Positions 14,695 to 55,497 of a stretch of DNA of 64,000 nucleotides are shown here, in pieces. Location of the stretch: contig CAMVAF010000003.1 in assembly GCA_947165365.1 (NCBI GenBank), positions 1,678 to 65,677 on the forward strand, in the 5' to 3' direction. Source of the DNA: an uncultured Clostridia bacterium (lineage in GTDB: Bacteria > Bacillota_I > Bacilli_A > RF39 > UBA660). The position numbers and the translations under genes were made by a program. Positions within the stretch are counted from its first letter, which is position 1. Each line of letters starts with the position of its first letter. The notes below the pieces were generated by a model, which made no database searches, was not told the origin of the DNA, and worked only from the letters and a program-made list of their open reading frames with translations.

Positions 14695-14797
14695 ATCATT
14701 TATCACAACCTTAATAAAAGTATATCATATTTTTTAAATAAATAAACATTTTTCATTAAAATTTCACAAAAAAAGAAGGATTTCTCCTTCTTTATTA

Positions 14798-20555: not shown

Positions 20556-20632
20556 ACATCTCTCCCTTATAATATATAATGTTATCATATTTTTTTGTCG
20601 AATTCAATACTTTTTTTAAAATTCCTTAATAT

Positions 20633-21217: not shown

Positions 21218-21954
21218 TTCACCTTATTTTTTATCTCATTTATATCAATTATTTGCGTTGCATCTAATACTTTTTTAGATTTTTTAACTTCTTTTTTTAT
21301 CTCAGCTATATCTATAACTTGCGTAGCATCTAATACTTTTTTCTTTTTAGAAGGTACTTCTTTAACTTTAACTATTTCAGTATCTTTATCTTTTTTCTTT
21401 TCTTCTTTTTCTTTTATTTCTTTTTTATCTTTTTCCTTATCCTCTTTAATAACCTTTTCTTTATTTCCATTATATGAAAATAATAAACTTAAACAAAATA
21501 GTGATACAAAGATTAAAATAATAACTTTAGGAGATAATAAAACTTCTTTAATTGCTTTAACATTTGGTATAATCTTGGTAACTTTACCTAAAACTAAACT
21601 TTTATCAATAGGATTATCATTAGTATTATTATTATCACCTTTTGTTATGATATAATCATCATTCTTTTCAATAACACGGTGAGTTACAAAATCCTTACCA
21701 GATATATAAGTTACGACATCACCTTCATTATAATCACTATTTATTTTTACAATGACAACATCACCTTCATTTATATAATCTTTCATACTTCCAGTTGCTA
21801 CTTGAAAATATGTATATCCAAAGATATTAACATATTTTTTTTGCATTATTTTTAAACTTATAAAACTATATAAACAAAAAAGAATAATCAAGATGACGAT
21901 AGTTATTAAAATATTAACTATAATATTCACAATCTTATGAGATTTATTTAACAT
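21214..21954 (-). CDS. sipW: SipW/Sec11-type signal peptidase I (S26B) with repetitive Lys-rich C-terminal tail
   Basis: TM, then ATGSMKDYINEGDVVIVK (Ser), THRVIE (His), TKGDNNNTND and a second TM. The tail contains KKVLDATQ(V/I)IDIxEIK twice. Confidence 0.8.
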   Translation of the reverse strand: MLNKSHKIVNIIVNILITIVILIILFCLYSFISLKIMQKKYVNIFGYTYFQVATGSMKDYINEGDVVIVKINSDYNEGDVVTYISGKDFVTHRVIEKNDDYIITKGDNNNTNDNPIDKSLVLGKVTKIIPNVKAIKEVLLSPKVIILIFVSLFCLSLLFSYNGNKEKVIKEDKEKDKKEIKEKEEKKKDKDTEIVKVKEVPSKKKKVLDATQVIDIAEIKKEVKKSKKVLDATQIIDINEIKNKVK

Positions 21955-21975
21955 ATCATCACCTCTTTTTATTCT

Positions 21976-22554
21976 TTAATTATTTGTAATTGTTTCCCCT
22001 AAATATTGACTAAATTTAATATTCGTAGCGATATTAATTTCTTTTTCACCAGTAACCCCAAACATAGAATCAATTTCATTATTTTCTTCATCATTTTCCC
22101 ATTCAATATATACTCTAATATGATGAACAGAACTATTATTAATAGGTATAATACCCGTATAAGTACCATTATTATTAACTAAAGTATTGCCACCCAACTC
22201 TTCAATATTAACTATTTTTATTTTATCATTTTCTAATCCTGTTAAATCAAAAGTAATATCATATCTAATAGATACCGATGTATTATTAGGATCAATATCA
22301 ATATCAAAAAAAGCTCCAACACCAGGTGCAATTAATCCTTCTTTAACATTGGAATCACTATTAATATTATAATTATTAACCGTAAAATGAACAGGATCTT
22401 TAGCCAGACTATTATTAACCTTAATTTGCCATTTAGCAATATTATTATCCACTGTTATAACATTATTTGTTTCAAATAAACCAAAAGTACTACTGATTTC
22501 CATAATAGTTAAAGAAAGAAATAATAATACGACTAAAAGTAGTATTTTTCGCAT
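21976..22554 (-). CDS. exported TasA-like/CPF_0494-like protein (class 2)
   Basis: The signal ends STFGLFETNN. IAKWQIKVNN and LIAPGVGAFFDIDID are shared with the paralog at 36331..36915. Confidence 0.55.
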   Translation of the reverse strand: MRKILLLVVLLFLSLTIMEISSTFGLFETNNVITVDNNIAKWQIKVNNSLAKDPVHFTVNNYNINSDSNVKEGLIAPGVGAFFDIDIDPNNTSVSIRYDITFDLTGLENDKIKIVNIEELGGNTLVNNNGTYTGIIPINNSSVHHIRVYIEWENDEENNEIDSMFGVTGEKEINIATNIKFSQYLGETITNN

Positions 22555-22557
22555 AAA

Positions 22558-23103
22558 TTACTCTTCTCTTACTTCTTTAAGAGTCTTTTTAAATTCCTTA
22601 ACAATAACATAAACTTCATATAAAAATACAATTAGAAATGGTAAAATAACTAAGAATAAAAATCCCCATCTTGATGTCATTGTCTTTAAAACACTACCAA
22701 CAAATCCCATCTTACTACTACCATTTACATTTCCAATTAAATATTCACTAGAAAAAGCTTTATCTTCATTACTTTCATTTTTATATGAGAATGTGTGTTC
22801 TTTTTCATTAACATATTTATTATCTGTAACTTTAGCAAGAGTTACCGTATTTTTATTAAATGATGTATCATAAAATAATACTGGTTCACCATTACCGATA
22901 CTATTTAAATCAGGATATTTAACAATAACTAAATCTCCCTTCTTATAATAATTTAATACATCATTTTCCATAACAACAAGTGATGTATCACCAATTTCCA
23001 CAACACCCTTATCATTTGTTTTCAATAAACAAAAAGTTGCAAATGCACAAATAACTAAATATGCAAATAAAATTGTTTTAAAAATATTTCCTATAACCTT
23101 CAT
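22558..23103 (-). CDS. SipW-shaped membrane protein lacking catalytic Ser/His (pseudo-peptidase)
   Basis: It has the same N-TM / beta-core / C-TM layout as the SipWs. KKGDLVIVK, LIGNV and the C-terminal TM GFLFLVILPFLIVFLYEVYVI align with SipW-B (GFFFIIFVPFIIFVFCEVISV). GSMxP is replaced by TSLVVM, HRV by LAKV, and GDNN is absent. Confidence 0.55.
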   Translation of the reverse strand: MKVIGNIFKTILFAYLVICAFATFCLLKTNDKGVVEIGDTSLVVMENDVLNYYKKGDLVIVKYPDLNSIGNGEPVLFYDTSFNKNTVTLAKVTDNKYVNEKEHTFSYKNESNEDKAFSSEYLIGNVNGSSKMGFVGSVLKTMTSRWGFLFLVILPFLIVFLYEVYVIVKEFKKTLKEVREE

Positions 23104-23150
23104 ACTATCACCATTAAAAGTATAACATAAACAAAAATCTTATGCAATAA

Positions 23151-23681
23151 CTATTTCCCTTCTAAAATCTCTCTTGCTTTTAAAATAAAATCAATATCAT
23201 CAAAATTAATATTAATATCATTCATATAATGATAATTAACAATATTATCTATAACTTTAATAAAATTATCGATATTTCCTTCTTCTAAATAATCTAAATT
23301 AATATTAAATCCTAATAATTTATATTTATCAACGACAATAGAATTTAATTTCTCTAAATCACTATATCCTTCATTATTAATTAATGTAACATATGGACTA
23401 TGAATAAATATATTAATTTCTTTTAAAATATCATTTAGATCCATTTCAATTTGATATTTAGAAGATACCCTTTTTAAAAATAAATAACTACTAATACCAA
23501 GTTCTAAATAAATAGATAACTTACTATTATCATCAATATAATTATATATTCGATCCTTGATAATATCTAAATCATATTCACTATATAAATTTAATAAATC
23601 ATTTAAAAGTAAATCATTTTTATTATGTGGCACTAGTGTTGTCGCTGCGGATTTATATATTAAGAAATTCATTACTATCAT
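23151..23681 (-). CDS. hypothetical cytoplasmic protein
   Basis: 176-aa ORF overlapping the stop of the upstream gene. No TM segment and no motif recognised. Confidence 0.5.
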   Translation of the reverse strand: MIVMNFLIYKSAATTLVPHNKNDLLLNDLLNLYSEYDLDIIKDRIYNYIDDNSKLSIYLELGISSYLFLKRVSSKYQIEMDLNDILKEINIFIHSPYVTLINNEGYSDLEKLNSIVVDKYKLLGFNINLDYLEEGNIDNFIKVIDNIVNYHYMNDININFDDIDFILKAREILEGK

Positions 23682-24747
23682 TATCCATTATCTTCTTAGC
23701 TTTATTATTATTCTTTTTTATTTCATTAGATATTTTATCAATATCTTTAAGTTTATTTTTTAAAACACTTTTATAATCATTTTTATTATTATATAATTCA
23801 TGACATTCATCTATTATATAATGATATTTACTAATCATTTGATATTCCCTAAGAGAATTTCTTAAATTAACAAATAAACTTTTTTTATCATTAACAATCG
23901 AATTTTCTGTATAATCATTAATCATTTTGTCTATTTTAACTTTATCATAATCTTTAATATCTAATTCATTATTTAAAAACATATCTAAATATCTTTTTCT
24001 TGATTTACTAATTAAATTATCATAATCAATAATTCTTTTTTGATATTCTTTATTAAAGTTATCTAAATAATTAGAACTTTTCTTTCTAAATATACTAAAT
24101 CCACTATTCTTTTTATCTTCATATTTAGAAAATTTATTTAACTTTTGATTTTCAATATAACTTATAAATTTCTTATTATTTTTAAAATATAAATCATAGA
24201 AATTAACCACAAGATATTTTAAGATATTAGGACATTTCCAATATAATTTTTCAAAATACTCATGTATTTTATTACTATCTTTTTCTTTAAGTAAGAAATC
24301 AATATATTCACTAGCGTAAACATTAAAATCAAATGATTCTTTATTCAAAACAATACCAACATCATTAAATACTTTAATAATATTTAAAATATTTTCATTA
24401 ATAATATCAAGATTTTCATTTTCATATGAATTAATTATATCTAACATTTTATCTAAATTAAGTATTTCCATTGGTGAAGTTAAACTATTAAGATAATTAA
24501 AATCATTTAACAATTCAGTAGTATTATTACCAATATTATCATCTTTTATATCACATAAACTATAATATCTTTTTTCTATTTCAGCTAATACATTATCATT
24601 AATACCTTGATATTCATTAATTAATGATGTTACTTTTTCTAAATAATTTTTTCTATTTCTTAAATTGTTTTTAGGTAATACACTTAATATTTCTTTATCA
24701 TTTTCTATTTTATTTTTAACATCATCTAACATACTATTCACCATCAT
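23653..24747 (-). CDS. hypothetical cytoplasmic protein
   Basis: 364-aa Asn/Lys-rich ORF with no TM and no motif recognised. In-operon position. Confidence 0.55.
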   Translation of the reverse strand: MMVNSMLDDVKNKIENDKEILSVLPKNNLRNRKNYLEKVTSLINEYQGINDNVLAEIEKRYYSLCDIKDDNIGNNTTELLNDFNYLNSLTSPMEILNLDKMLDIINSYENENLDIINENILNIIKVFNDVGIVLNKESFDFNVYASEYIDFLLKEKDSNKIHEYFEKLYWKCPNILKYLVVNFYDLYFKNNKKFISYIENQKLNKFSKYEDKKNSGFSIFRKKSSNYLDNFNKEYQKRIIDYDNLISKSRKRYLDMFLNNELDIKDYDKVKIDKMINDYTENSIVNDKKSLFVNLRNSLREYQMISKYHYIIDECHELYNNKNDYKSVLKNKLKDIDKISNEIKKNNNKAKKIMDNDSNEFLNI

Positions 24748-24838
24748 GAAAACTTTCTTTATCTTTTGTTAATTCTTTTATATAGTCACTTACTAATTTA
24801 TATATATCTAATAAATCACTATTTGAAATATCATTCAT
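24734..24838 (-). CDS. small ORF (34 aa), translationally coupled to 23653..24747
   Basis: Not in the track. ATG at 24838 lies 2 nt after GGAAGGTGAAG. It reads MNDISNSDLLDIYKLVSDYIKELTKDKESFHDGE*, and the stop overlaps the next start by 14 nt. Confidence 0.4.
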   Translation of the reverse strand: MNDISNSDLLDIYKLVSDYIKELTKDKESFHDGE

Positions 24839-24888
24839 ATCTTCACCTTCCAAGTATTTATAAAAAAATTATATCATAAAACAAAATA

Positions 24889-24913
24889 AAAATACATATT
24901 TTACATGTATTTT
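24889..24913 (-). terminator. possible weak terminator/attenuator after the giant gene
   Basis: AT-only 9-bp stem AAAATACAT/ATGTATTTT abutting the stop codon, U-rich downstream. A GATATAAT -10-like element follows. Confidence 0.3.
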
Positions 24914-27900
24914 TATTTAATAACAAAGTATTGATAGATATTTCCAACATTTACATCACCATCATATAAGTATATTACTAGCTTATATGTTCCGGTTTTC
25001 AAATTATCTTTTAAGGTATAATTATTACTTACATTAGAACCTGGATTAGTAAAGAATTTATATACTTTATTATCACTTGTAGTATTTAGTGTTCCATCAA
25101 GATAATCTTTAATATCTACAAGGTTATATGATAAATCATATATATTATTATAAGTTCTTCTAAATAGTGCAATACGAAGATTTGGATTATCTAGAGTAGA
25201 TGAATATAAAATATTGAAATTAAAATCTTTATTACCATCTAAATTATTTCCTGTTTCATGATCAATAATTAAATATTTATCATCGATATCAATATCTAAT
25301 CCATAATTCTTTTCCATTATTTTAAATGGAACATCACATTCATCAGATGATTCTATACCATAGTATATACCATCAGGTGAATAAAATGATTCTACTTTTA
25401 AAGTATAATTTCCACCAGATAAGTTACCATCAGTAGTATCAATAAGAATAGCTGAATAAACATTAGCAACTTTCTCTGCTAAATTAATTCTTACTGTACC
25501 ATCACTTCTTGGATAATGAGTTATTCCATTATATATAAATGATACCCCCATTAAATCCACACCATTTACTTGATTATTATTTTCATCAAATATTGTTAAT
25601 TTAATACCTAATTTATTATCATAATATGTGGTATCGATAATATTATTGTTACTATTATCTTTCTTTTGTTCAAAAGAAGTTGTTACTCTTAATGTAGTAT
25701 CATTACCTATATGAATAACATTATTATTTAACTCGGCATCTACATGAATAATACCATCAGAATTATAATATAAATCATATTTCATACTATCATGTTGGGT
25801 ACCTAAAACAGAATAAACAGTTTGTTCTGTAGAAGTTCTAATTTCCATTAACAATGATGTTTCTAAATAATTACTTGCTATTTCAGCATCACAGAAATCA
25901 ACGATAAAGATAAATTCTTCCACTGCCATTTTGTTTTCCAAATTATAATAAATATTTTTTAATGTTTCTTCATCATAAGTATTATTAGTACTAGAACTTC
26001 CCATTTTAATAAATTTACTTAAATCATAGGAATATGTTAAATATAAATTATATTTATTAATAATATCAACATTATCTTGAGCGTTTGTAATATAGTAATA
26101 ATATTCAGGACTTGTACCACTTGCAAAATCAATCATTGTTATTTTAGTATTTACAGGTAATAACTTATCTGATACTAAAGCATGATGATATCCATTACGA
26201 TAAATAGAATTCTCTGAATTTACATATAATGCATAATAAGCACTTAAACTACTTTTTGATGTAATTCTTGTAGGACTTGATGAGAAGAATTCATATTGTC
26301 GTCCTGGTGTCATAGCAGCTTCATAGAAATCACCTTGATATATCGCTCTTGATAAATTAACAACTATATCTATACGTGTTGTTTCTTTTTCCAAATCATT
26401 AATTGGAGTTATAGCAAGTAATTTAATCGTTACATAACCTAAATTACCATCAGTTGCTAAATTCTTTGAGTGATATAAATAAAATAGTAAACTAGGAGCC
26501 ATTGATGAGTTTTCTGTATAGTATGTTGTTGTACCTGATATATTATTAGCACTTTCAGTTAAGAAGTCAGTTGATCCTAAAGTAATCCATCCTTCAGTAC
26601 CTGGTCTTATGGATAAACCAAGTTTATTATCAGCATCATTGGAATTACTTGCAATTCTTGGAATACTATTAGGAGATACAAGTGATACTTCACTATTTAA
26701 ATTTTCATATTGAAATCCTACTACAGAAAAATAAGTGTTAGCCGTTGTATAATCAATTAAAGGAAGTTCATATGTACCTAGTGTTGAATATTTAGAAGCA
26801 ACAAGGTCTACTTCATAAGAAGTTACTGATGTACCAATAATCCACATATAGTAGCTTGAATCTTCTGGTGTTGGCACAATATATTTAACTTCTAATGTAT
26901 TTTCTTCCCCTTCTTCCGTTGATGCAAAATTAGAATAGAAACCATCTACCTCGATATTATGATTATCTTCATGTAATCCTAAAACATAAGTTCCTCCAGA
27001 GAAATAATAAATATCATTATCATCAGCATGATCACCATAATTATAACTAGTGTCATACATCGCAACTACGATTTCTCCTGTTCTTTCTTTTTTATACATT
27101 CCTAAGAAAGTCATTCCATCTACTTCACCATATGATGTGATATTTTGATTTGTTGCAATATTTAAGATTTTATCTTCTAACATATAGATTCGATTATTAA
27201 CATTTTTTACTACTGTACCATTATCTTCATCAATTACAACACTTGCTAAAGTATTATTATCTTTTAAACTTCTAAATTTCTTAAGAAGATTAGCCCCATT
27301 TTGGAAATATATTGTACTATTGTTAACTAAATCCAATTCATCAATACGACTTACACTAAATAAGACACTAGAGTATTCATTAGTTCTATCAGTTGCTCCA
27401 GATAGTTCAATATTAGTATTATTTAAAACAACTAAATCCGCTCTTTGAATGGAAATATTTTCTTTAACATCATTTAAACTACCATAATTACTTATATATA
27501 TTCTACTATAACCAGTAGTACTAGATGCATTTCCACTTCCAAAGATGGAACCAGATATATCAAAATGATCATGACTACTTCCATCAATATTAATAATAAT
27601 ACCTACTGTTACACTAATAAATGAGTAGTCATAATCTTCTGATCCACTAGCGTTAGCTTCTCCTCCACCAAAGACAGTTCCCCCAATATAAATATCTCCT
27701 TTTGAAAGAGTACTAGAATCTAAATTAGCATTATTATTTAAAACAGCATTATAACCAATATTTACTGTGGTATCACCATATAGAACTGATGTATTAGCGC
27801 CACCATAAACATTGCCACCTATTCTTCCACCAATAATATTTACAGATCCCTTGGAATTATTATTGGTAACAATACCAGTATAAGCAGCATTTCCACCACC

Positions 27901-30900
27901 AAAGACATGATTTAAAATATTAGTATTTCCTTCTACTAAGATATAAGTATCTTTAACCACTGTGGCACTAGCACCATTTCCACCAGCATAAGCACTTCCA
28001 TTAATAGTAGTTCCATTAATTAAAACATTAGTATTTCCTAATACTTTAGCGTTATTTCCACCGCCAAAAATATTATTAGATATTGTACCATTTGCTAATT
28101 TAACACTAGTATTTCCTGATACATCAGCGTTATTTCCACCACCATAGATATTAGATACTGTAGCATTTTGATAATCAATAAAGGTATTAGTTGTGGTACC
28201 ACCAGCGTTATTTCCACCATAAATATCAGTATAAGTTCCACCTGTTATATTAACATTTGCTGTTGTTACTACACCACTTGTATTACTTCCACCATAAACA
28301 TAATTGGCTTTTCCTTTAATTAAATTAACGTTTGATGTAGTACAAGATGCTTCCATACCACCACCATAGATAGCGGATACTTGATTATTAGATACTGTAT
28401 TAAAATTAATATTTGATGTTCCATGATTTGCTCTTGATCCACCACCATAAATAGTATTAATAGTCCCATCATTAATATTTAGATTACTAACAGTTGTACT
28501 TCCACCAGCATTATTACCACCATAAATAGTTGTTATTGTTCCACCATCAATAGTTATATTACTATTATTAACAACACCACTTGTATTACTTCCACCATAG
28601 ATATTACTTATTGTTCCACTATTCATTTGGATATTACTACTACCTGTTACATCAGCAGATTCTCCACCACCATAAACATTGGTTAAAGAATTATTTATTG
28701 TAACGTTAGTTTTACCAGTACTTGCTTGTAAACCTCCACCATAGATAGTATTAATAGTACCACCATTCATTGTTACAAAAGATTCTGTAGTACTTCCACC
28801 TACATTATTACCACCATAGATATTAGAAGATGTTCCAGAGTTTACTAAAACATTACTTATCGGTACAACACCACTTGTATTACTTCCACCAAAAATTTTG
28901 GTTGTCGTACTTCCTGCTAATTTAACATTGGTTTTGGTAATAATACCAGCCTCATTTCCACCACCATAAGTATTAGTAACTGTTCCCCCATTTAAATTAA
29001 CATTAGTCGTATCAGTTAAAGCTTTATTACCACCACCATAGACATTACTTGCTGTACCATTATTGATATTAACAATGGTTGTTGTTGTTTGGGCTTCATT
29101 TCCACCACCATAAATAGTATCAACATTAGATCCATTTAATAAAACATTACTATTTATTGTTTTTCCACCAATATTATTACCACCATAAACAGTAGTAGCT
29201 CTACCTCCTGTTAAAGTAATATTGGTTGCTAATACTTCACCTAATTCATTACTTCCACCATAAATATTAGTGAAATTACCATTTTGTAAATAAATATTAG
29301 TTACATCAGCTCCACTTTTATTACTACCACCAAAAGTATTAGTAGCAGTACCACCTTGTAAATAAACATTGGTATTAGAAACAGTAGCTAAATTACCACC
29401 ACCAAAGACATTGGTTATATTAGATTTATCTTTAACATAAACTGTAACATTACTACTTAGTGAATCAGCTTCATTTCCACCACCATAGACATTACCTATT
29501 TTAGCATCAGTATTATATCCACCAGTAGTAACCGTAATATTACCATAAGCTCCACCACCAGAATTATTTCCACCATAGAAGTTTTTAGTAAAGTCTCCTT
29601 CTTTAATATTTAGAGAACAACTTCCCATAATGTTACCTAGAGTACTATCTAGTTTATTTCCCATACTTCCACAATAAGTATCACCATCTATTGTAATAGT
29701 AGGAGTACTTGAAGTATCATCAATATCAAATTGAATATTACCAATTACTGTTCCTAAGGCACTTCCACCATAGGAATCTCCTTTAATCATGACTTTATTA
29801 TTATCTTCTATAGAAACACTTATATTACCAGCAATTGATGTTTCTTCACCATATCCACCACCAAATAAACTTCCATGATTATTATCATCATAATTAATAG
29901 TACCACCTAAAATATTGATTGTAACATCACCTGCAACATTACCTTTTTCACAAGATCCACCATAAAGAGTCTTTTTAATCTCTCCTCCTGTCATATTGAT
30001 TGTTACATCACCATTTAATCTATTGGTTGCCGTTTGAACAAAGTTTGTAGAAACATTCTGTGTTTTAAAAGTTAAACTATTAACCGAAGTATTAGTTCTT
30101 GTTAATACCCAGTTATTATTAAATCCTAAATAAAAGGTATCTTCTATTTCATTGTAATTAACATTATATTTTCCAAAGTAAAAGTTAGTTCCTGATGATG
30201 CTGTAGTAGTTGTTGTCCAACCATTATTATATGTTAAATAATATGTTCTAAAGAAAGCTCCATAATAGAAGTTTCTTCCATCACTTTGCCAGTAAGTTGG
30301 ATTATTACCTAAAGTTAAATTATAGTTAAACCAACCACTTGATTCCATATATAAATATAATCCAGTATTTACATTTTTAATGGCATATTCCCCATTATCT
30401 TCTTCAATAATCCATAAATTATTTGAAGGAATACTATTGCTACTTAAAGTAATATTAGATAAATTATTATTGGTAATTGCCATTGAATTAGCAGTATTAG
30501 AATTAGAATTCGTTAATAAGATTTCTTCATTGGTAATCATTGATGTACTAAAGTTATAAGATACTGTATAATCATTAAAATAACTTGCTTGTTTATAGAA
30601 TGATTTATTACTTGTATCATATTGCCATACCTCTGGATTAGTATCTAATTTTAATGTTGGATTATTTAAACCTGTTTCATGAGTTAAATACATATTATTA
30701 CCAACATTCTTAATAGTATAACCATTATCTTGACTAGTAATTGTCCAAAAACTTCTTAAAGGCGCACTTGTGGTTGTTCCTAAAACACTATTGGTAATAG
30801 AATTATTATTTAAAGATAAAGCATTCATTGTTGAACCATTTTCTTTAACAATCAAGTATCCATTACCAGATGTGATATTTTCATGATTAACATAGGATAC

Positions 30901-33900
30901 TGTCTCTCCCATTCCTTCTTGAATAGTAACACTTCCTATACCATTTTTATTAGCGCCACCATAGACACTTCCATAAATCGTACCACCAGAAATATCTAAA
31001 TGAACATCATCGGTAACATTACCATAATTTCCCCCACCGTAGACACTTCCATATATTTTGGCATCACCACTTATATAAACATTTGTTTTAAGTACTTGAC
31101 CAGAATTTGGAACATCACTATTACCATTACCAGCTCCTAATACAGAACCATAACGAACTCCATATAATTCACCAGAATTATTGGTTCCTATACTTGCATT
31201 TCCACCTATATGAACATAACTATTACCTTGTAATTTACCACTTTGTTGTCCTGTGGAATCAGTAGCAAAGACTCCATTACTACCACCAGATACACTATAT
31301 TCAATACTACCACCAGTAACAGAAATATATCGATTACCATATGTTGTTGATACACCAGCTCCTCCTACAATATTAGAAATAGTACCACCTTTTACATAAA
31401 TCTTTGTAGGAACCGTGTTTTGGTAATTCTCATAAAGACGAAGACCACCAACAATATTCGAAATATAGCCTCCTTCCATTACCAAAACTCTTGGTGAAAT
31501 ATCAGTAGTATAATTCGTGGCATTAACAGTTAGTCCACCAACATAAAGTCCTGAGTAAGCTCTATTATCATCACCCGGATTATTATTAAAATAATCATAT
31601 CCTATGTTACCACTTTTAACATTAATTAAATAAGCTGGATTACTAGAATTAGTTTTACCAACAATACCATAATTATTAGAACTACCTGCACGATAATATA
31701 TTTGAAGACGATTATGAACATTTGATACTCGATCATAATCATTACCTAAAACAAAAGTCATTTTACCATAATAGTCAACTGTATTATAATTACTATAATT
31801 TCCGTCATTGGCAATACGAACACCCATAACTGATGAATATCTTCCTGTTTCAATAACAAAACGATATTCATTATTATGATTATTACTACTTCCAAGAGAT
31901 GTACTATCACTTCCACCATAAGCAAAACTAAAAATAGATGCCGAATTATTAGTCAAAGAAGTAGTATTCATTCCTCTTCCTATTCTAACATTATGATAAT
32001 TTCCTTCTAAAGCTGCATATGTTCCACTATAATTAGTTGTTGTTGTATCATTACTAATAGCATTAAATCCATCAGCTTTAATACTTAAATATTCCATTTG
32101 TAAATCATTATAAGCAGATACAAAATCATATCCATTATTAACATCATCTGTTAAATCAATAGAAGCATTATTACGATAATCAATGTGATTATAAAGACTG
32201 GTAATAGTTACCGCAAGATTATTATTATTTGTATTATAATTATTAGTACCAATATTACCAGTATTAGTAGTTCTTATTTCTCTATCAATAGTATATGTTG
32301 CAAAATTTAACTGATTATTAGAATCAATATCACTTATTTCAAAACGATTATTATATCTTACATAATAATTAACTATATTATTAACATAATTACTTTCAAC
32401 AGTTTTTAAAGTTATTGTCGTATTATCCCCTAAAGTATCAACTAAACCCCAATTATTATTATCAAATGATAAATATACATTAGTATTTTGGTAACTACTA
32501 TTAGTTACTCTTGTTGTAAAATATAACTCTGTGCCTTGATTAGCATTAGTTGTTGTAGACCAAGCTCCATTGTTATATCGAAGATAATATCTATTATTAT
32601 AATTTCTTTGATAATAAAGATAATGATTAGTAGAATCATAAGTCCATGTTCTTGAATTAGCATTAGTCGATAATGTACCATTATTACTACAATATAAATA
32701 CCTATTATTACTAGCATTTCTTATGGTATAACCACCATTATAATTACTCAATAACCAAGAACTAGTATTTGTTGGTTCATTATCTGTCATATCAAAATAA
32801 GTTAAATTATTACCATTCACTGATAGAGCAATTAAGTTATTATTATCACCATTTGTAATATAATAATTACTTCCACTATTAATATAATTAGCATGATTAT
32901 AGGAATAAGTTATATAATTAATTAATGTTTGTCTATAAAATGCATGATTAGTATTATCATAATTCCAAGTTGTAAGATAATTAGAAAAATTTAGAGAAGC
33001 TCCATTATTACCACTATCAACACTTGATAAATAATTATTACCATTTTTTATGGTGTATCCACCATTTTCATTAGTAATTGTCCATAATGCATTATTATTA
33101 AAATTACGATTATTAAAATTACTATTAGTCAAATTATTATTTAAAGAATTATTCTCTGATCCACTAGTTATTAAATATTCTTCTCCACTTGTAATACTAT
33201 TTACATCATTATAAGTATATTCATAATAAGATAAATCAATTGGTACATAGAATTTTCTTAAATTATTATCATATTTCCATAATGTACTGGTATTAGACAT
33301 ATTTAAAGTTACATTACTACCATTAACACTATACGATAAATATCTATTAGTATCATAATTTTGAATGGTATATGAACCATTTTCTTCTCTAATTATCCAT
33401 TTGGTATTATCAAGGGGCTCCACTGTTTCGGATAAAGTAGTATAACTAACACCATTATTATCAGTTAAAGCATATCGTGTATTTCCATTTTTATATTCAA
33501 TAATATGAGGTGTATCATCAAAATTTGTTTTATCATTATAATTAACAGTTATATCGTAAGTATGAGTTACAGTTTGAGAGTAATTTGGACTCATCGCAAT
33601 ATCACCAGTTAAAACAATGATATTTCTTTCACGATCATCTGGATTTGTACTATTACTTTCTAAAATAGAGAACGCTCTTCCCCAGGAAGCAACAGCATCA
33701 TCTTCTATACTACCATCAAAATTATCATCACCTAAACTACCTTTTAAATAAACAACATGAGCATCTATCCAATTAGCATAAATATTAACTACTTGATTAT
33801 TCCCTGATTTAACTACCTTGATTGTTTGAACATTAGTATTATTATTTTTAGTAATGACACCATCAAAACTTTCCCAGCCACCAAAAGCTTTATTAGTTGG

Positions 33901-34329
33901 ACGATCACTAAATGGATTATCAATAAGTTCGATGGTCATTTCATTATTAACAACTGGATAATATTTATAATATACAAATTTATTTTGTTTTTCAGTTAAG
34001 GAAACATAACCACATAAAGTATCATCACAATTATTAACACTACTATCATATCCATGATAAATAATTGTTACACTGGATAAATTACTATCACTATATGAAA
34101 CAGTATTAGAATTAATATCGCCAACATAATTCATTCCTAAATAATAATTATAGTCACTCTCTAAATCATTAACATAAACAGTATCTCCTGTAATATGAGA
34201 ACCTGTATCAGTTACATCTTCAGAAAATGTCTTAAATAAATTTATTGATAAAAAAAGGATAATAGCAATAACGAAAAAAATTACTATTAAACGATTAAAT
34301 AAACTTTTATTTTTAATAATCTTTTTCAT
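24913..34329 (-). CDS. giant secreted/surface protein (3138 aa): SipW-cognate-like signal, ricin-B-like lectin modules, two beta-helix repeat regions, ~850-aa unassigned C-terminal region
   Basis: Single uninterrupted ORF behind the RBS AAGGAGGA. N-terminal LIVIFFVIAIILFLSINLFKTFSEDV. Five units follow the pattern WxIxxxNGxYTIxNxxxNxYL..(T/V)W(x)YD..FY. There are more than 25 YGG(G/S/N)N units. No LPXTG at the C-terminus. Confidence 0.85.
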   Translation of the reverse strand: MKKIIKNKSLFNRLIVIFFVIAIILFLSINLFKTFSEDVTDTGSHITGDTVYVNDLESDYNYYLGMNYVGDINSNTVSYSDSNLSSVTIIYHGYDSSVNNCDDTLCGYVSLTEKQNKFVYYKYYPVVNNEMTIELIDNPFSDRPTNKAFGGWESFDGVITKNNNTNVQTIKVVKSGNNQVVNIYANWIDAHVVYLKGSLGDDNFDGSIEDDAVASWGRAFSILESNSTNPDDRERNIIVLTGDIAMSPNYSQTVTHTYDITVNYNDKTNFDDTPHIIEYKNGNTRYALTDNNGVSYTTLSETVEPLDNTKWIIREENGSYTIQNYDTNRYLSYSVNGSNVTLNMSNTSTLWKYDNNLRKFYVPIDLSYYEYTYNDVNSITSGEEYLITSGSENNSLNNNLTNSNFNNRNFNNNALWTITNENGGYTIKNGNNYLSSVDSGNNGASLNFSNYLTTWNYDNTNHAFYRQTLINYITYSYNHANYINSGSNYYITNGDNNNLIALSVNGNNLTYFDMTDNEPTNTSSWLLSNYNGGYTIRNASNNRYLYCSNNGTLSTNANSRTWTYDSTNHYLYYQRNYNNRYYLRYNNGAWSTTTNANQGTELYFTTRVTNSSYQNTNVYLSFDNNNWGLVDTLGDNTTITLKTVESNYVNNIVNYYVRYNNRFEISDIDSNNQLNFATYTIDREIRTTNTGNIGTNNYNTNNNNLAVTITSLYNHIDYRNNASIDLTDDVNNGYDFVSAYNDLQMEYLSIKADGFNAISNDTTTTNYSGTYAALEGNYHNVRIGRGMNTTSLTNNSASIFSFAYGGSDSTSLGSSNNHNNEYRFVIETGRYSSVMGVRIANDGNYSNYNTVDYYGKMTFVLGNDYDRVSNVHNRLQIYYRAGSSNNYGIVGKTNSSNPAYLINVKSGNIGYDYFNNNPGDDNRAYSGLYVGGLTVNATNYTTDISPRVLVMEGGYISNIVGGLRLYENYQNTVPTKIYVKGGTISNIVGGAGVSTTYGNRYISVTGGSIEYSVSGGSNGVFATDSTGQQSGKLQGNSYVHIGGNASIGTNNSGELYGVRYGSVLGAGNGNSDVPNSGQVLKTNVYISGDAKIYGSVYGGGNYGNVTDDVHLDISGGTIYGSVYGGANKNGIGSVTIQEGMGETVSYVNHENITSGNGYLIVKENGSTMNALSLNNNSITNSVLGTTTSAPLRSFWTITSQDNGYTIKNVGNNMYLTHETGLNNPTLKLDTNPEVWQYDTSNKSFYKQASYFNDYTVSYNFSTSMITNEEILLTNSNSNTANSMAITNNNLSNITLSSNSIPSNNLWIIEEDNGEYAIKNVNTGLYLYMESSGWFNYNLTLGNNPTYWQSDGRNFYYGAFFRTYYLTYNNGWTTTTTASSGTNFYFGKYNVNYNEIEDTFYLGFNNNWVLTRTNTSVNSLTFKTQNVSTNFVQTATNRLNGDVTINMTGGEIKKTLYGGSCEKGNVAGDVTINILGGTINYDDNNHGSLFGGGYGEETSIAGNISVSIEDNNKVMIKGDSYGGSALGTVIGNIQFDIDDTSSTPTITIDGDTYCGSMGNKLDSTLGNIMGSCSLNIKEGDFTKNFYGGNNSGGGAYGNITVTTGGYNTDAKIGNVYGGGNEADSLSSNVTVYVKDKSNITNVFGGGNLATVSNTNVYLQGGTATNTFGGSNKSGADVTNIYLQNGNFTNIYGGSNELGEVLATNITLTGGRATTVYGGNNIGGKTINSNVLLNGSNVDTIYGGGNEAQTTTTIVNINNGTASNVYGGGNKALTDTTNVNLNGGTVTNTYGGGNEAGIITKTNVKLAGSTTTKIFGGSNTSGVVPISNVLVNSGTSSNIYGGNNVGGSTTESFVTMNGGTINTIYGGGLQASTGKTNVTINNSLTNVYGGGESADVTGSSNIQMNSGTISNIYGGSNTSGVVNNSNITIDGGTITTIYGGNNAGGSTTVSNLNINDGTINTIYGGGSRANHGTSNINFNTVSNNQVSAIYGGGMEASCTTSNVNLIKGKANYVYGGSNTSGVVTTANVNITGGTYTDIYGGNNAGGTTTNTFIDYQNATVSNIYGGGNNADVSGNTSVKLANGTISNNIFGGGNNAKVLGNTNVLINGTTINGSAYAGGNGASATVVKDTYILVEGNTNILNHVFGGGNAAYTGIVTNNNSKGSVNIIGGRIGGNVYGGANTSVLYGDTTVNIGYNAVLNNNANLDSSTLSKGDIYIGGTVFGGGEANASGSEDYDYSFISVTVGIIINIDGSSHDHFDISGSIFGSGNASSTTGYSRIYISNYGSLNDVKENISIQRADLVVLNNTNIELSGATDRTNEYSSVLFSVSRIDELDLVNNSTIYFQNGANLLKKFRSLKDNNTLASVVIDEDNGTVVKNVNNRIYMLEDKILNIATNQNITSYGEVDGMTFLGMYKKERTGEIVVAMYDTSYNYGDHADDNDIYYFSGGTYVLGLHEDNHNIEVDGFYSNFASTEEGEENTLEVKYIVPTPEDSSYYMWIIGTSVTSYEVDLVASKYSTLGTYELPLIDYTTANTYFSVVGFQYENLNSEVSLVSPNSIPRIASNSNDADNKLGLSIRPGTEGWITLGSTDFLTESANNISGTTTYYTENSSMAPSLLFYLYHSKNLATDGNLGYVTIKLLAITPINDLEKETTRIDIVVNLSRAIYQGDFYEAAMTPGRQYEFFSSSPTRITSKSSLSAYYALYVNSENSIYRNGYHHALVSDKLLPVNTKITMIDFASGTSPEYYYYITNAQDNVDIINKYNLYLTYSYDLSKFIKMGSSSTNNTYDEETLKNIYYNLENKMAVEEFIFIVDFCDAEIASNYLETSLLMEIRTSTEQTVYSVLGTQHDSMKYDLYYNSDGIIHVDAELNNNVIHIGNDTTLRVTTSFEQKKDNSNNNIIDTTYYDNKLGIKLTIFDENNNQVNGVDLMGVSFIYNGITHYPRSDGTVRINLAEKVANVYSAILIDTTDGNLSGGNYTLKVESFYSPDGIYYGIESSDECDVPFKIMEKNYGLDIDIDDKYLIIDHETGNNLDGNKDFNFNILYSSTLDNPNLRIALFRRTYNNIYDLSYNLVDIKDYLDGTLNTTSDNKVYKFFTNPGSNVSNNYTLKDNLKTGTYKLVIYLYDGDVNVGNIYQYFVIK
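27770..29470 (-). repeat. tandem ~24-codon beta-helix-type coding repeats (xNVxLxGGTxxNIYGG[GSN]Nxxxxx)
   Basis: I count about 23 consecutive units. YGGSNTSGVV recurs every fourth unit, followed by YGGNNxGGxT and YGGGxxA, which indicates a ~4-unit (~290-bp) super-repeat. Confidence 0.8.
30060..30750 (-). repeat. lectin block B of the giant protein (two ricin-B-like units plus YYLTYNNGWTTTTTASSGTNFYF and FYLGFNNNWVLT..LTFKTQN)
   Basis: WTITSQDNGYTIKNVGNNMYL..VWQYD; WIIEEDNGEYAIKNVNTGLYL..YWQSD. The segment order is the same as in block A. Confidence 0.6.
32400..33400 (-). repeat. lectin block A of the giant protein (three ricin-B-like units plus YYLRYNNGAWSTTTNANQGTELYF and VYLSFDNNNWGLV..ITLKTVE segments)
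   Basis: WIIREENGSYTIQNYDTNRYL..LWKYD; WTITNENGGYTIKNGNNYL..TWNYD; WLLSNYNGGYTIRNASNNRYL..TWTYD. The block is duplicated as block B. Confidence 0.6.
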
Positions 34330-34347
34330 TAGTTATCCTCCTTCTTT

Positions 34348-35346
34348 TTATGGATTTAAAGTAAATTGCAAATTATATCTGATATCACCAAAAGATGCAT
34401 TATTTTCACTATCAACATCTTGTCCTTCTAACCACATATATATTTTTACTTTAGTTATACCTCTTTTAATATCAAATAATTCTTGATTAGTATCATTATT
34501 TTTTTTCGTATAAACTTTAACATTTACAGGTTTAAAATAATTGGGATAATTTATACTATTAGCATTTCTAATATCAATATTTTGAGAAAGTAATATCGGA
34601 TTAATTAAACCATCATAAGGAATAATTTCTCCGTTTTCTTCAGTAGTTACAATATTAAATGTGGATAAGGCATTTGATACACCAGTTCTTGTATGAACAT
34701 CATAATTAGGTTCCCAAATATAGACATCATCATTTCTTCCACCATTTAAATTTTGCGCGACATTGATATTCGCATCTTGCGATACATTACCTTCCAATAC
34801 AAAAGCAACTCTTGCGGAATTTTCAATACCTAAACTTTCTTCACCTAAATAAGTTACAAATGAATCACTACTTAAAAATAATTTTCGATCAACACTAGTT
34901 CGAAAGAATACATCAAATGATATAAAACTTCCCAAACAATCTTCCCCACTACATCTTGTTTCTACTTGTCTTTTACTAGATAAAATGTATTCACCAGAAG
35001 CAACATTCTCTAAGTTACCATAAAACATATATAAATATCCATTATTATCCGTTATTCCCGCCGTTGACATTGGCATGACATTAGATGGAACTTGATTAGT
35101 ACTATTTCCATATGTTTTATAAGCTTCTACTATATCATTAACACTTAAAACACTTTTCCAATCCAAAGCATCAGTTGATATTTCAATACCACCATCTGTT
35201 TCAACATGAACATCAACAAATTCAATATCCGTAATTCTATTAGTAGAAAACCAAGCATAAGTTGATGTTGCTAAAAATATTCCAACAATAAAAAACCATA
35301 ATAGCAAAAACAAAAACTTTCTTCTTTTTTTCTTTTCTTCCTTCAT
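34348..35346 (-). CDS. exported TasA/camelysin-like protein, class 1
   Basis: The signal ends TSTYAWFSTN. It shares IEISTDALDWKS, NQVP, EPNYDVHTRTGV and IYMWLEGQDVDSENNAS with 19329..20555. The gap to the giant gene is 18 nt. Confidence 0.6.
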   Translation of the reverse strand: MKEEKKKRRKFLFLLLWFFIVGIFLATSTYAWFSTNRITDIEFVDVHVETDGGIEISTDALDWKSVLSVNDIVEAYKTYGNSTNQVPSNVMPMSTAGITDNNGYLYMFYGNLENVASGEYILSSKRQVETRCSGEDCLGSFISFDVFFRTSVDRKLFLSSDSFVTYLGEESLGIENSARVAFVLEGNVSQDANINVAQNLNGGRNDDVYIWEPNYDVHTRTGVSNALSTFNIVTTEENGEIIPYDGLINPILLSQNIDIRNANSINYPNYFKPVNVKVYTKKNNDTNQELFDIKRGITKVKIYMWLEGQDVDSENNASFGDIRYNLQFTLNP

Positions 35347-35354
35347 GATGTCAC

Positions 35355-36134
35355 CTATTCTTTCTCATCCGGAATAGTTCGAATATCGGCATTAACACTA
35401 TTTTTATTATTGTTAATATAAGTTCTTGTTTCTTCATCAAAATGTTCATCAGTGATATTCATGCCAATTTTTATTTCACCACCTAAAAGATTATCCACAC
35501 ATTCAGGATCATCCCCTTCAAGCCAAATAACTACAGTCATTTTATCTATTTCCCCAGGTTTTAATTTAGATCTATTTTCAAGAACGGGAACATCATTTTT
35601 ATAAAAAACTTTGGTGCCTTTTTCTGCTTCTCCAGTTAAAGGATTAGCTTTCGCATAAACCGTTTCAGTATCATTTAAAACAATCATAATTCTAATCGCT
35701 TCATCAACATTTTTAATAACATCTTGAATAACTACTTTATACCAATAATCTTGTATTTCAACACCTTGATTATCAATATAGAAAGTATAAGCAATATAAT
35801 TATCACCATTGTGTCCACCACCTGAAAAATCTTTAATATTTTTAGGTAACCAATCAATTGATATATTATCCATAAATTTAAGTTCATCAGCATATAACTT
35901 ACGAACATGTTTATGAACTTCTTTTTCTGTATAAATAGCAAGACCTGATTCAAGTCTAAAGTTAGGATCAAGTGTTACGGTAAAACTTCCTCCATTATAA
36001 GCTAAACTTAAAACGACAAATAAACTCATTAAGAAAATAATCGAAACTACTATGATAATACGATACTTTTTAGCTCTTTTCTTTCTATTTTTTATCTTAT
36101 CCGCTGTATAAACAACATATCCTTCTTTTGCCAT
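35355..36134 (-). CDS. membrane-anchored/exported protein distantly related to class 1
   Basis: TM IIIVVSIIFLMSLFVVLSL. The C-terminal VVIWLEGDDPECVDNLLGGEIKIGMNI matches the class-1 terminal motif. RBS GGAG. Confidence 0.5.
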   Translation of the reverse strand: MAKEGYVVYTADKIKNRKKRAKKYRIIIVVSIIFLMSLFVVLSLAYNGGSFTVTLDPNFRLESGLAIYTEKEVHKHVRKLYADELKFMDNISIDWLPKNIKDFSGGGHNGDNYIAYTFYIDNQGVEIQDYWYKVVIQDVIKNVDEAIRIMIVLNDTETVYAKANPLTGEAEKGTKVFYKNDVPVLENRSKLKPGEIDKMTVVIWLEGDDPECVDNLLGGEIKIGMNITDEHFDEETRTYINNNKNSVNADIRTIPDEKE

Positions 36135-36226
36135 AATCTACTCCATACTATAAACATTTTACCATATTAGCAAGGTATTTTCAAGAAAAATGACAAATTA
36201 TTCATATAAATCAAGAAGTTATCCCT

Positions 36227-36290
36227 TTTACAATTTATTTTACATATTTTTACATTTATATTTTACAATATTTTATCAATTATATTTACA
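36227..36290. promoter_or_regulatory. array of five TTTACA direct repeats in the divergent control region
   Basis: TTTACA begins at 36227, 36239, 36249, 36262 and 36285, between 35355..36134 (-) and 36331..36915 (+). Confidence 0.3.
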
Positions 36291-36330
36291 TCATTTTTTT
36301 AAAATGGTAAACTACAATTAGGAGGAAGTA

Positions 36331-36915
36331 ATGAGATATAATAAAAAAATAATCTTTTTAATATTTTGTGTATCTATTTTGCTATGTATTTTGACAATGC
36401 AAGAAACATATGCTAAATATTCAACCTCCAATAATGCTACATCAAATATGTCAATAGCAAGATGGCGTATTCTTGTAAATAATTTTGATGTAAGAAATGA
36501 TTTATCAACAGAAACAGTTATTCAACCAGTATTTAGTGGTAATAATAATATAAGCGATGGTTATATCGCTCCTACGGCTAATGGTTACTTTGATATTTTA
36601 ATTGATGCAACTGAAACTGACGTAACATTTGATTATCAAATATCACTTAATCAAAATGCCAGTAATGAAGTTGTTGATTTAGCTATCACTGGTTATTCTA
36701 TAGATAATGGTGAAGTAGTTAATTATAATAACAGTAATATAATTGGAACTATAAATAAGACTGATGCAAATAAAACAAAACAAATTAGAGTATTTGTTAC
36801 ATGGAATGATGGTGAAGGTTCCACAATGAATAATGAAGCTGATACCAATACAACTGGTGATAACGCTACTGCTAAAATGGATGTTAACTTACATTTCATT
36901 CAAAAAGCAAATTAA
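36331..36915 (+). CDS. exported TasA-like/CPF_0494-like protein (class 2), the only plus-strand gene of the locus
   Basis: RBS AGGAGGAAG. The signal ends QETYAKYSTSNN. IARWRILVNN and YIAPTANGYFDILID make it a paralog of 21976..22554. Confidence 0.6.
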   Translation: MRYNKKIIFLIFCVSILLCILTMQETYAKYSTSNNATSNMSIARWRILVNNFDVRNDLSTETVIQPVFSGNNNISDGYIAPTANGYFDILIDATETDVTFDYQISLNQNASNEVVDLAITGYSIDNGEVVNYNNSNIIGTINKTDANKTKQIRVFVTWNDGEGSTMNNEADTNTTGDNATAKMDVNLHFIQKAN

Positions 36916-36943
36916 AATAAGTTCAAAATGAACTTATTTTTTT
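36914..36943. terminator. bidirectional terminator between convergent genes
   Basis: 12-bp palindromic stem AAAATAAGTTCA/TGAACTTATTTT flanked by A- and T-runs. It abuts both stop codons. Confidence 0.7.
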
Positions 36944-37556
36944 AATTCGTTTGATCAATATGAATCGTTAAATTGATAGAAATACTTGGCATATCAGTAT
37001 GTGTATGATTATAAGTATAGGCATTTTCGCCCCACAAGGTATCAACGCTATCTTCATTTTCTTCAAAATTCCAGATAACTTCTACTGCAAAAATAGAAGA
37101 TGCAGAAGGAGCTATAATATCATGATTAACACCAATTTGTATTTTAAAAGGGAAATCATTTTCTAACATATTAATAATATCATCACTAGTTAATGTTTCA
37201 GAAACAGTATATGTCGTATCAAGAATTCTTACAGAATTAATTTCAAAACTAACTAAGGCATTGGTATCACCATTATTAGTCATAATAACTTCATCATGAT
37301 AATTATTCATTCCAGGATAAATATCATCAATATCAAATGTTAATGATTGCATAATACTTTGATCATCCTGGGTAAAAGTAATATTCCAAGCTCTCACTTT
37401 AGCCCCCATTTCAGTATCAACATGACTAGAAAAAACAAACCAAGCATATGTATTAAATGAAAGCAAAACAATAAGAATTAAGAGTGTTTTTAAACCTAAA
37501 GTTTTTTTAAGTTTTTTTAAGACAATTTTAATTTCTTTTTTTTTCACAAAAATCAA
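36942..37556 (-). CDS. exported TasA-like protein (class 3)
   Basis: The signal ends FNTYAWFVFSS. DIYPGMNNYHDEVIMTNNGDTNALVSF resembles the TasA LxPGDxxxxxFxxxNxGS strand. The start codon is ambiguous (TTG 37556 or GTG 37547). Confidence 0.55.
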   Translation of the reverse strand: MIFVKKKEIKIVLKKLKKTLGLKTLLILIVLLSFNTYAWFVFSSHVDTEMGAKVRAWNITFTQDDQSIMQSLTFDIDDIYPGMNNYHDEVIMTNNGDTNALVSFEINSVRILDTTYTVSETLTSDDIINMLENDFPFKIQIGVNHDIIAPSASSIFAVEVIWNFEENEDSVDTLWGENAYTYNHTHTDMPSISINLTIHIDQTN

Positions 37557-39257: not shown

Positions 39258-39275
39258 AATATCACACCCTCCATA

Positions 39276-40796: not shown

Positions 40797-40798
40797 AA

Positions 40799-55416: not shown

Positions 55417-55497
55417 ATACTCTCCTATCAATAACATAATTATACAATATATTTTTTAAAAAAACTAGATAAAAATAATTATTTATCTAGTTTTTAT

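Follow-up and report, generated by a model that had tools for sequence, protein, structure and literature searches.

A 3138-residue protein with a putative SipW-type signal, lectin-like blocks and a C-terminal Ig-like array in a conserved gene cluster of uncultured Bacilli and Clostridia

Results

A giant reading frame within an 18-gene cluster

We analysed a 64,000-nucleotide (nt) stretch of contig CAMVAF010000003.1 (assembly GCA_947165365.1; hereafter the window, with a G+C content of ~25%) from an uncultured Clostridia bacterium, focusing on a single gene that encodes a protein of 3138 amino acids (aa), here called the giant, and on the cluster of 18 genes (~24 kb, 19329..43219) in which it lies, flanked by rpsL-rpsG-fusA and tyrS. 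The original prediction had described the giant as an unbroken open reading frame (ORF) encoding a protein with a SipW-cognate-like N-terminus, ricin-type lectin modules and two beta-helix regions. The frame at 24913..34329 on the minus strand indeed reads through 3138 codons, and a matching ORF, also of 3138 codons and with 96.7% amino-acid identity, is present in the independent assembly L001, which is the closest genome record and a rumen metagenome-assembled genome (MAG) labelled uncultured Erysipelotrichaceae bacterium RUG12925. Two further homologues, P0002 and P0003, have 3136 and 3143 aa and are 85% and 79% identical to the giant. Because the DNA repeats of the Gly-rich region, which are spaced 72-75 nt apart, have diverged to a mutual identity of just 60-75% (one 52-nt pair reaches 87%), and because L001 is concordant, a collapsed or frameshifted assembly in the repeats, which the original prediction had named as a risk, is unlikely, and we rejected it. 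An AGGAGG Shine-Dalgarno sequence lies 7 nt ahead of the ATG of the giant, and this start is placed 18 nt past the stop codon of the upstream 332-aa gene; the two genes are translationally coupled. No terminator-like site was detected downstream of the giant. The coordinates of all features are collected in Table 1.

An aromatic motif after the N-terminal helix is shared by seven proteins of the cluster

The N-terminus of the giant, MKKIIKNKSLFNRLIVIFFVIAIILFLSINLFKTFSEDV, has the hydrophobic helix and the aromatic motif that had been claimed for it, with FKTFSE (aa 32-37) directly after the hydrophobic core. Aromatic motifs also follow the hydrophobic core in TasA (TWAAFND) and CalY (TFAYFSD). 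The likeness of the giant to this context is real, and it is kept in more than 100 homologues, in which the residues after the helix read (F/Y/L)-x-x-(T/S)-(F/Y)-S-(E/D) or close variants of it, including YFRTFSD, FFHTYSD, YLKSYSE, INSFSET and PTFSEK. Among the 26 N-terminally hydrophobic ORFs in the window, the motif is found in the giant and in six further proteins, all of them in the cluster (YAWFS, YAWFT, TYAWF, YAKYS, FGLFE and FSRFE), and in none of the 13 that lie outside the cluster; one extra match to the motif expression sits within the membrane helix of one of the peptidases and is spurious. Unlike several other exported proteins of the window, which lie outside the cluster and whose classical signal peptidase I sites carry Ala at -1 (VNVSA↓K, ECLAA↓A, VNVSA↓A and KQVYA↓Q), the giant has no Ala at this position. 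A type IV pilin (class III) signal was also considered and was rejected, the motif coming after the hydrophobic helix and not before it.

The giant has a single hydrophobic segment, with no hydrophobic window beyond aa 7-37. The absence of a wall anchor, as previously claimed, was borne out by our searches, in which we found neither an LPXTG-like motif nor a hydrophobic segment at the C-terminus, and no Pfam match to S-layer homology (SLH) or choline-binding domains; the protein ends in ...NIYQYFVIK, with no LPXTG-like match near this C-terminus.

The C-terminal array is the best-conserved part of a large protein family

The original prediction had left the C-terminal ~850 aa without a nameable motif. 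This has to be corrected, because AlphaFold2 models the region confidently as an all-beta structure with a mean predicted local distance difference test (pLDDT) score of 86.6, and Foldseek matched this model to the immunoglobulin (Ig)-like domains of PrgB (6.8e-16), the legs of integrin alpha (~1e-12) and macroglobulin domains. The region is thus predicted to be an array of tandem Ig-like beta-sandwich domains. The C-terminal 860 residues are also the best-conserved part of the family, with 31-66% identity outside the closest homologues, and the length of the region is constant across the family (841-878 aa). An exhaustive search with this region recovered at least 358 clusters (50% identity level) at E<=1e-10, in which it stands almost always at the very C-terminus of proteins of 2300-4700 aa. 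Judged by this conservation, the Ig-like array is the core of the family. More than 250 homologues of the giant, of 2300-3300 aa, come from MAGs of Bacilli and Clostridia; where a source name is attached to one of them, it reads "hypothetical protein", and in the literature library searched we found no description of the cluster or of the protein family. We conclude that the system to which the giant belongs is real, widespread in metagenomes and unannotated.

Five beta-trefoil-like units form two clade-specific blocks

The five units of the pattern W-x-I...G-x-Y-x-I-x-N...W-x-Y-D...F-Y that had been claimed are present in the giant, starting at aa 311, 416, 525, 1196 and 1306; four of the five match a strict unit expression (versus 0.0025 matches expected per shuffle), and the fifth has a one-residue deletion. 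The Trp of the second half of the pattern is retained in every unit (LWKYD, TWNYD, TWTYD, VWQYD and YWQSD). Searches of the whole protein against Pfam, NCBIfam and PDB sequences gave nothing above threshold, so that segment-wise and per-unit scans were needed for the trefoil-type matches. More than 90% of the giant is without Pfam coverage. In the per-unit scans, the best Pfam families were beta-trefoil lectin families throughout (RicinB_lectin_2 at 17.6-19.0 bits or CCL2-like at 15.7 bits). Specifically, block A matched RicinB_lectin_2 at 18.1 and 19.0 bits, CCL2-like at 15.7 bits and Fascin at 17-20 bits (20.4 at most), and block B matched RicinB_lectin_2 at 23 bits as a whole and at 18.2 and 17.6 bits per unit; all of these scores fall slightly short of the gathering scores, which are 25.6 bits for PF14200 and 23.1 bits for Fascin. 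The orthologue P0014 clears the PF14200 threshold at block B with 28.3 bits, and a family profile found the ricin-B-like lectin 4ion in the PDB (E=0.0012).

The AlphaFold2 model of aa 1-720 has a mean pLDDT of 83.7, with 10-residue block means mostly of 80-95 over aa 300-700, and Foldseek matched it to the tandem beta-trefoils of fascin (6.5e-7), MTX 2vsa (9.7e-7) and HA33 (2e-6); all 50 matches listed are trefoil proteins and TasA is not among them. The beta-trefoil identity of the units therefore stands at the level of the predicted fold and fails at the Pfam gathering threshold in the giant itself, where membership in the ricin-B-like family is borderline. Trefoil-like sub-repeats continue past units 3 and 5, and the number of complete trefoils is therefore approximate. 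Because the blocks are present only in a close clade (P0002-P0029, with block B additionally in a few other members) and the scaffold around them is conserved, they are accessory, clade-specific inserts; given this variability, they probably set specificity, and we suggest that their ligands would be carbohydrates.

We note that trefoil units 1 and 2 are joined by an Asn-rich linker, NNNLTNSNFNNRNFNNN, which is encoded by a 15-nt tandem repeat of 3.3 copies at 33093..33141. No other DNA repeat of the gene is near-perfect, and length variation may occur here.

The remaining regions of the giant

The N-domain (aa 41-300) shows 30-58% identity through the family and is modelled with a pLDDT mostly of 65-93; no Pfam family matched it. 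A possible likeness of its motif NPFxxRPxxxGFGGW to Flg_new found no support in Pfam and is not claimed. The two GG-rich regions of the original prediction were found at aa ~931-1124 and ~1448-2221, fitting the nucleotide ranges given for them. Their repeats follow the consensus YGG(G/S/N)N-x6-8-N(V/I)xLxxGxxxN(I/V), and aa 880-1150 and 1430-2290 have no Pfam, NCBIfam or PDB sequence matches. The regular 24-25-aa periodicity with its YGGxN turn fits a solenoid, and a beta-helix or beta-solenoid would be its natural reading.

SipW-type signal peptidases and small motif-bearing proteins surround the giant

The cluster encodes two SipW-type signal peptidases that are apparently active, judged by their sequences (cut-off of TIGR02228, 51.85 bits). 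Because the Bacillus SipW equivalog model NF046067 scored 82 against a cut-off of 190, we regard the cluster peptidases as being of the same type as SipW and not as its orthologue. Two degenerate paralogues, which are conserved alongside them and score far below cut-off, might act as pseudo-peptidase subunits or as receptors that recognise the signal motif common to the cluster proteins. Of the six smaller proteins bearing the motif, the 332-aa protein encoded immediately upstream of the giant is a candidate major fibre subunit. It has no Pfam or PDB sequence match, and a PDB profile search for a link of its family to TasA yielded just a chance histone match. Because neither the giant nor any other protein of the window matches PF12389 (Peptidase_M73), the giant lies outside the TasA family and is not itself a TasA-type subunit.

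The gene order is conserved in other lineages

The order of the cluster is kept nearly gene for gene in L003 (a Bacilli MAG), L004 (a JGI metagenome contig) and L006 (a Clostridia MAG), and partially in L002 and in L005, the most divergent member. Linkage of a SipW-type peptidase to the giant is kept in L003, L004, L006 and L002. In L004, neighbours of the giant homologue match Peptidase_M73, the TasA/camelysin family; in a Pfam scan of 26 aligned sequences this match was found solely for a 496-aa protein of L004, which aligns poorly (14% identity to the window protein), and not for the 330-aa family. A phage tail fibre or prophage origin of the giant was set aside in view of the location between rpsL-rpsG-fusA and tyrS, the synteny in five lineages and the lack of phage genes nearby, the viral fold library not having been searched.

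Several differences between the genomes were also recorded. L001 has an extra 444-aa gene with an N-terminal GGTTYAFFN motif at 19481..20815 on the plus strand, between the giant and the next gene, which is absent in the window. In the same assembly, the 233-aa gene and tyrS adjoin the far end of the cluster, and in the window they stand on the opposite side; this points to a rearrangement, or to a misjoined contig, in either assembly. The gene for a Lys/Glu/Asn-rich protein is split at 23151..24747 into two ORFs that overlap by ~29 nt, with a ~37-nt insertion at the junction relative to L001, and is either a frameshifted pseudogene or the result of a sequencing or assembly error. In L002 (16870..18405) spoIIAA-spoIIAB-sigF adjoin the cluster and in L004 (20071..21288) a FemAB gene does; the organisms are therefore walled, and at least some are spore-forming.

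An McrB-like AAA+ protein and a DUF2357 protein accompany the cluster

The highest conservation within the cluster is that of the AAA+ gene, its product being 76% and 73% identical to the counterparts in L003 and L004 versus ~43% for the giant. The best PDB match of this protein is McrB 6ut6 (E=5e-4), and its homologues of equal length, all unnamed, number more than 8000. The gene for the DUF2357 protein adjoins the AAA+ gene in L003, L004 and L006; DUF2357 is also seen in L005, where the AAA+ gene is probably just past the edge of the locus. McrB/DUF2357 pairs are normally restriction or defence modules, and the AAA+ core partially matches the PADLOC candidate defence model PDC-M26A; by this similarity the pair may be a defence module. 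Its co-conservation with the fibre genes argues for a functional coupling.

Table 1. Positions of the giant, its regions, the genes of its cluster and exported proteins used for contrast
Feature	Position	Strand	Remarks
Giant ORF, whole gene including stop codon	24913..34329	-	3138 aa, ~345 kDa by residue count
Putative SipW-type signal or signal anchor, aa 1-40	34210..34329	-	Basic n-region, hydrophobic helix aa ~14-31, L-F-K-T-F-S-E-D
Conserved N-domain, aa 41-300	33430..34209	-	All-beta plus one helix, no named family
Lectin-like block A, aa 301-700	32230..33429	-	Units at aa 311, 416, 525 and a further trefoil-like stretch
Conserved middle and first Gly-rich region, aa 701-1150	30880..32229	-	GG turns at aa 931-1124
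Lectin-like block B, aa 1151-1435	30025..30879	-	Units at aa 1196, 1306
Long Gly-rich solenoid-type repeat region, aa 1436-2285	27475..30024	-	~28 repeats of 24-25 aa
Predicted C-terminal array of ~seven Ig-like beta-sandwich domains, aa 2286-3138	24916..27474	-	End ...Y-x-x-I-K conserved
419-aa paralogue of the 332-aa protein	19329..20588	-	38% identity; VYAWFT motif
194-aa small predicted secreted protein	20633..21217	-	TFSRFE motif
Second SipW-type signal peptidase I, 246 aa	21214..21954	-	TIGR02228 74.7 bits, Peptidase_S24; Lys/Glu-rich tail
192-aa small predicted secreted protein	21976..22554	-	TFGLFE motif
Degenerate SipW-like paralogue, 181 aa	22558..23103	-	Without GSM serine box; TIGR02228 26.8 bits, below cut-off
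Cytoplasmic Lys/Glu/Asn-rich protein, split 364 + 176 aa	23151..24747	-	Single 507-536-aa gene in L001-L004
332-aa predicted secreted protein	34348..35346	-	Invariant (S/T)TYAWF(S/T)xNR after hydrophobic helix, family-wide
259-aa membrane-anchored protein	35355..36134	-	Conserved in cluster
194-aa small predicted secreted protein	36331..36915	+	TYAKYS motif; only plus-strand gene of the cluster
204-aa small predicted secreted protein	36942..37556	-	TYAWF motif
SipW-type (archaeal/ER-type) signal peptidase I, 191 aa	37553..38128	-	GSM...H...GD boxes; TIGR02228 91.9 bits, Peptidase_S26
387-aa DUF2357 protein (McrC-N-like partner)	38094..39257	-	PF09823 44.9 bits; no visible nuclease
506-aa McrB-like AAA+ protein	39276..40796	-	N-terminal hydrophobic helices; AAA_5 weak
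Two further conserved cluster genes, 329 aa and 309 aa	40799..42732	-	No family match
Second degenerate SipW-like paralogue, 161 aa	42734..43219	-	NF046067 19.3 bits, without serine box; orthologue in L003
Exported proteins with classical signal peptidase I sites, outside the cluster	13456..14706, 52571..54754, 54751..55437, 56027..58414		Ala at -1; contrast to cluster motif

Discussion

Among the sortase-independent matrix fibres of the Firmicutes, those of the SipW/TasA type are understood best. In Bacillus subtilis, SipW cleaves the signals off TasA and TapA, and the 26-kDa TasA polymerises via the N-terminal strand thus freed (residues 28-38), with TapA as the presumed supplier of the first donor strand (PMC9674648). 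Our working hypothesis, to which we give an even chance of being right, is that the giant is a SipW-processed adhesin or a terminal subunit of a sortase-independent, TasA-like fibre. Specifically, Sec would export the giant, a SipW-type peptidase of the cluster, and not the housekeeping signal peptidase, would recognise its signal and cut it near FKTFSE, and the freed N-terminal strand would dock by donor-strand complementation on TasA-like subunits encoded in the cluster, in the manner of TapA on TasA. The giant would thereby become the terminal, nucleating or tip subunit of the fibre, its trefoil modules, displayed on a rod, would bind carbohydrate on the host, on feed particles or on other microbes, and the invariant C-terminal Ig-like array would have a conserved structural or docking role. 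We estimate the length of this rod at ~50 nm, based on ~37 solenoid turns x 0.48 nm and ~seven Ig-like domains. In this scheme, cleavage by SipW, glycan binding and fibre docking are all steps that we infer. In its favour are the intact and reproducible ORF, the coupling to the upstream gene, the SipW-type peptidases of the cluster, the motif in the family and in six further cluster proteins, the invariant TYAWF of the 332-aa family, the retained gene order, the Peptidase_M73 matches beside the giant homologue in L004, the trefoil and Ig-like predictions, the lack of an LPXTG motif and of a second hydrophobic segment, and BsaC as a precedent for a larger cargo.

Several observations weigh against the hypothesis. 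The curated SipW-cognate signal models matched neither the giant nor the eight other N-termini in a scan of nine, even at E<=10 (the presence of TIGR04088 in the release being unconfirmed), and the sole related match was that of the TapA N-terminus model TIGR04087 to the 194-aa protein at 36331..36915 (16.4 bits). In the AlphaFold2 model, a helix spanning aa 8-36 runs through the aromatic motif (pLDDT <50 at 33-40), and an anchor that stays uncleaved would fit such a helix just as well. Sequence searches with the 332-aa and smaller cluster proteins gave no match to Peptidase_M73 or to TasA structures, so that it is their signal motif and their context that suggest a TasA-like nature. The trefoil units of the giant score below the Pfam thresholds and do not conserve the Gln position of the canonical QxW sugar-site motif. 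Lastly, the docking of the N-terminus of the giant on the subunits is modelled on TapA and would hold by analogy.

If the signal were not cleaved, the giant could be a membrane-tethered, stand-alone surface fibril with the Ig-like array at its distal end. The aromatic motif would then serve in recognition or retention, with the two degenerate SipW-like paralogues as one possible partner, instead of signalling cleavage or providing a donor strand. The continuous helix of the AlphaFold2 model fits this alternative, as do the length (~18 residues) and strong hydrophobicity of the only hydrophobic segment, the absence of small residues at the canonical -1/-3 positions near the motif, the absence of any other anchor in the giant and the conservation in the cluster of the two SipW-like proteins without a serine box. 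We nevertheless consider it rather unlikely, because the motif is also borne by six proteins of 192-419 aa that are sized and placed like secreted fibre subunits, two apparently active SipW-type peptidases are conserved alongside, and the equivalent motif of TasA straddles the cleavage site (PMC9674648). That the giant is an ordinary Sec-secreted large adhesin cut by the housekeeping signal peptidase I, so that the proximity of SipW-type peptidases would be coincidental, appears highly improbable: the giant stands beside such peptidases in five lineages, the motif is both family-wide and cluster-specific, and Ala at -1 is found in several other exported proteins of the window and not in the giant. 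The mixture of beta-solenoid, lectin and Ig-like modules in many large Gram-positive adhesins would fit such a protein, as would the lack of matches to the curated SipW-signal models.

The third alternative overlaps with our working hypothesis and places the giant as cargo or component in a new envelope machine powered by the AAA+/DUF2357 pair, with the SipW/TasA-like parts forming one module of it and the nucleoside triphosphatase (NTPase) providing the drive by which the giant and the small subunits are extracted, extruded or assembled across the wall. We deem it unlikely: pairs of this kind usually serve restriction or defence, the AAA+ domain partly matches PDC-M26A, physical or functional coupling to the giant is a conjecture from gene linkage, and literature searches yielded no precedent. 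Speaking for it, on the other hand, are the top rank of the AAA+ gene in conservation within the cluster, the N-terminal hydrophobic helices of its McrB-like product, the thousands of unnamed homologues of the same length and the linkage of the AAA+ gene with DUF2357, SipW and the giant in L003, L004 and L006, to which the DUF2357 seen in L005 can be added. A separate powered apparatus also has a parallel in Clostridium perfringens, in which secretion of SipW-operon proteins requires type IV pilus genes (PMC11580942). In its fullest form, the proposal would be a new fibre-assembly system, in which the AAA+ protein and a nuclease-less DUF2357 partner, two active and two pseudo peptidases and TasA-like subunits jointly export, process and polymerise a lectin-studded, ~50-nm sortase-free fibre with the giant as main cargo; we find this doubtful.

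Comparison with known systems places our working hypothesis between two of them. With tapA-sipW-tasA of B. subtilis, CalY/TasA of B. cereus and sipW-bsaABC of C. perfringens the cluster shares a dedicated archaeal/ER-type peptidase encoded beside its putative substrates, an aromatic motif right after the hydrophobic core (here TYAWFS and FKTFSE), a presumed sortase-independent assembly and, in the giant, a possible counterpart of the accessory non-subunits with the same signal type (TapA and BsaC). In C. perfringens, BsaC is a larger, non-pilin cargo of 70 kDa encoded in the sipW operon (PMC11580942). Unlike these systems, the cluster has four peptidase paralogues, of which two are active and two degenerate, and the motif is borne by seven proteins, one of which has 3138 aa and is ~12x the size of TasA; no protein of the window matches Peptidase_M73 or TasA by sequence, and the cluster adds the McrB-like AAA+ protein, the DUF2357 protein and several unassigned genes. 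To our knowledge, all known SipW substrates are small, and BsaC is the largest operon partner known. The giant resembles Gram-positive fibrillar adhesins in combining adhesive modules with a rod or stalk made up of repeated beta domains, and Foldseek matched it to the Ig-like domains of PrgB (8beg) and to the extender repeats of a large adhesion protein (6xi3). In contrast to PrgB and other fibrillar adhesins, it is without LPXTG, SLH or other wall anchor, its Ig-like array is C-terminal and best conserved, and its adhesive-type modules are inserted within the solenoid rod and not at the tip. By analogy, then, the giant would combine the role of a sipW-operon accessory protein of the TapA/BsaC type with that of a fibrillar adhesin.

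The lectin-like blocks share with R-type lectins (botulinum HA33, the mosquitocidal toxin MTX and MpL 4ion) the tandem beta-trefoil fold predicted for them, a PF14200 similarity that ranges from below to above threshold across orthologues, and a W...G-Y-x-I-x-N...YL...W-x-Y-D pattern that is like that of R-type sub-repeats; they differ from these lectins in the Pfam score of the giant, in the unconserved Gln and in the shortness of the units (~105-110 aa). The AAA+/DUF2357 pair is like McrBC-type AAA+ GTPase/DUF2357 pairs in that the AAA+ core aligns to McrB and the partner has a DUF2357 domain of the McrC N-terminal type, and unlike them in that the AAA+ protein is predicted to be membrane-anchored, the partner has no recognisable nuclease, and the pair lies within a secretion/fibre cluster and is conserved together with it.

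A ~345-kDa protein with a signal of the SipW class would widen the known substrate range of this pathway. If the AAA+/DUF2357 pair is functionally coupled to the giant, this would be a new use of an McrBC-like motor, and if the proposal of a new assembly system is true, it would be the first TasA-type pathway to be driven by an NTPase and would give such a motor a role outside defence. For the abundant uncultured low-GC Bacilli/Erysipelotrichaceae of gut and rumen, whose surface biology is barely known, the giant is a candidate adhesin, and its lectin inserts, which are specific to a clade and sit on a scaffold that does not vary, suggest that host or substrate specificity is tuned in a modular way.

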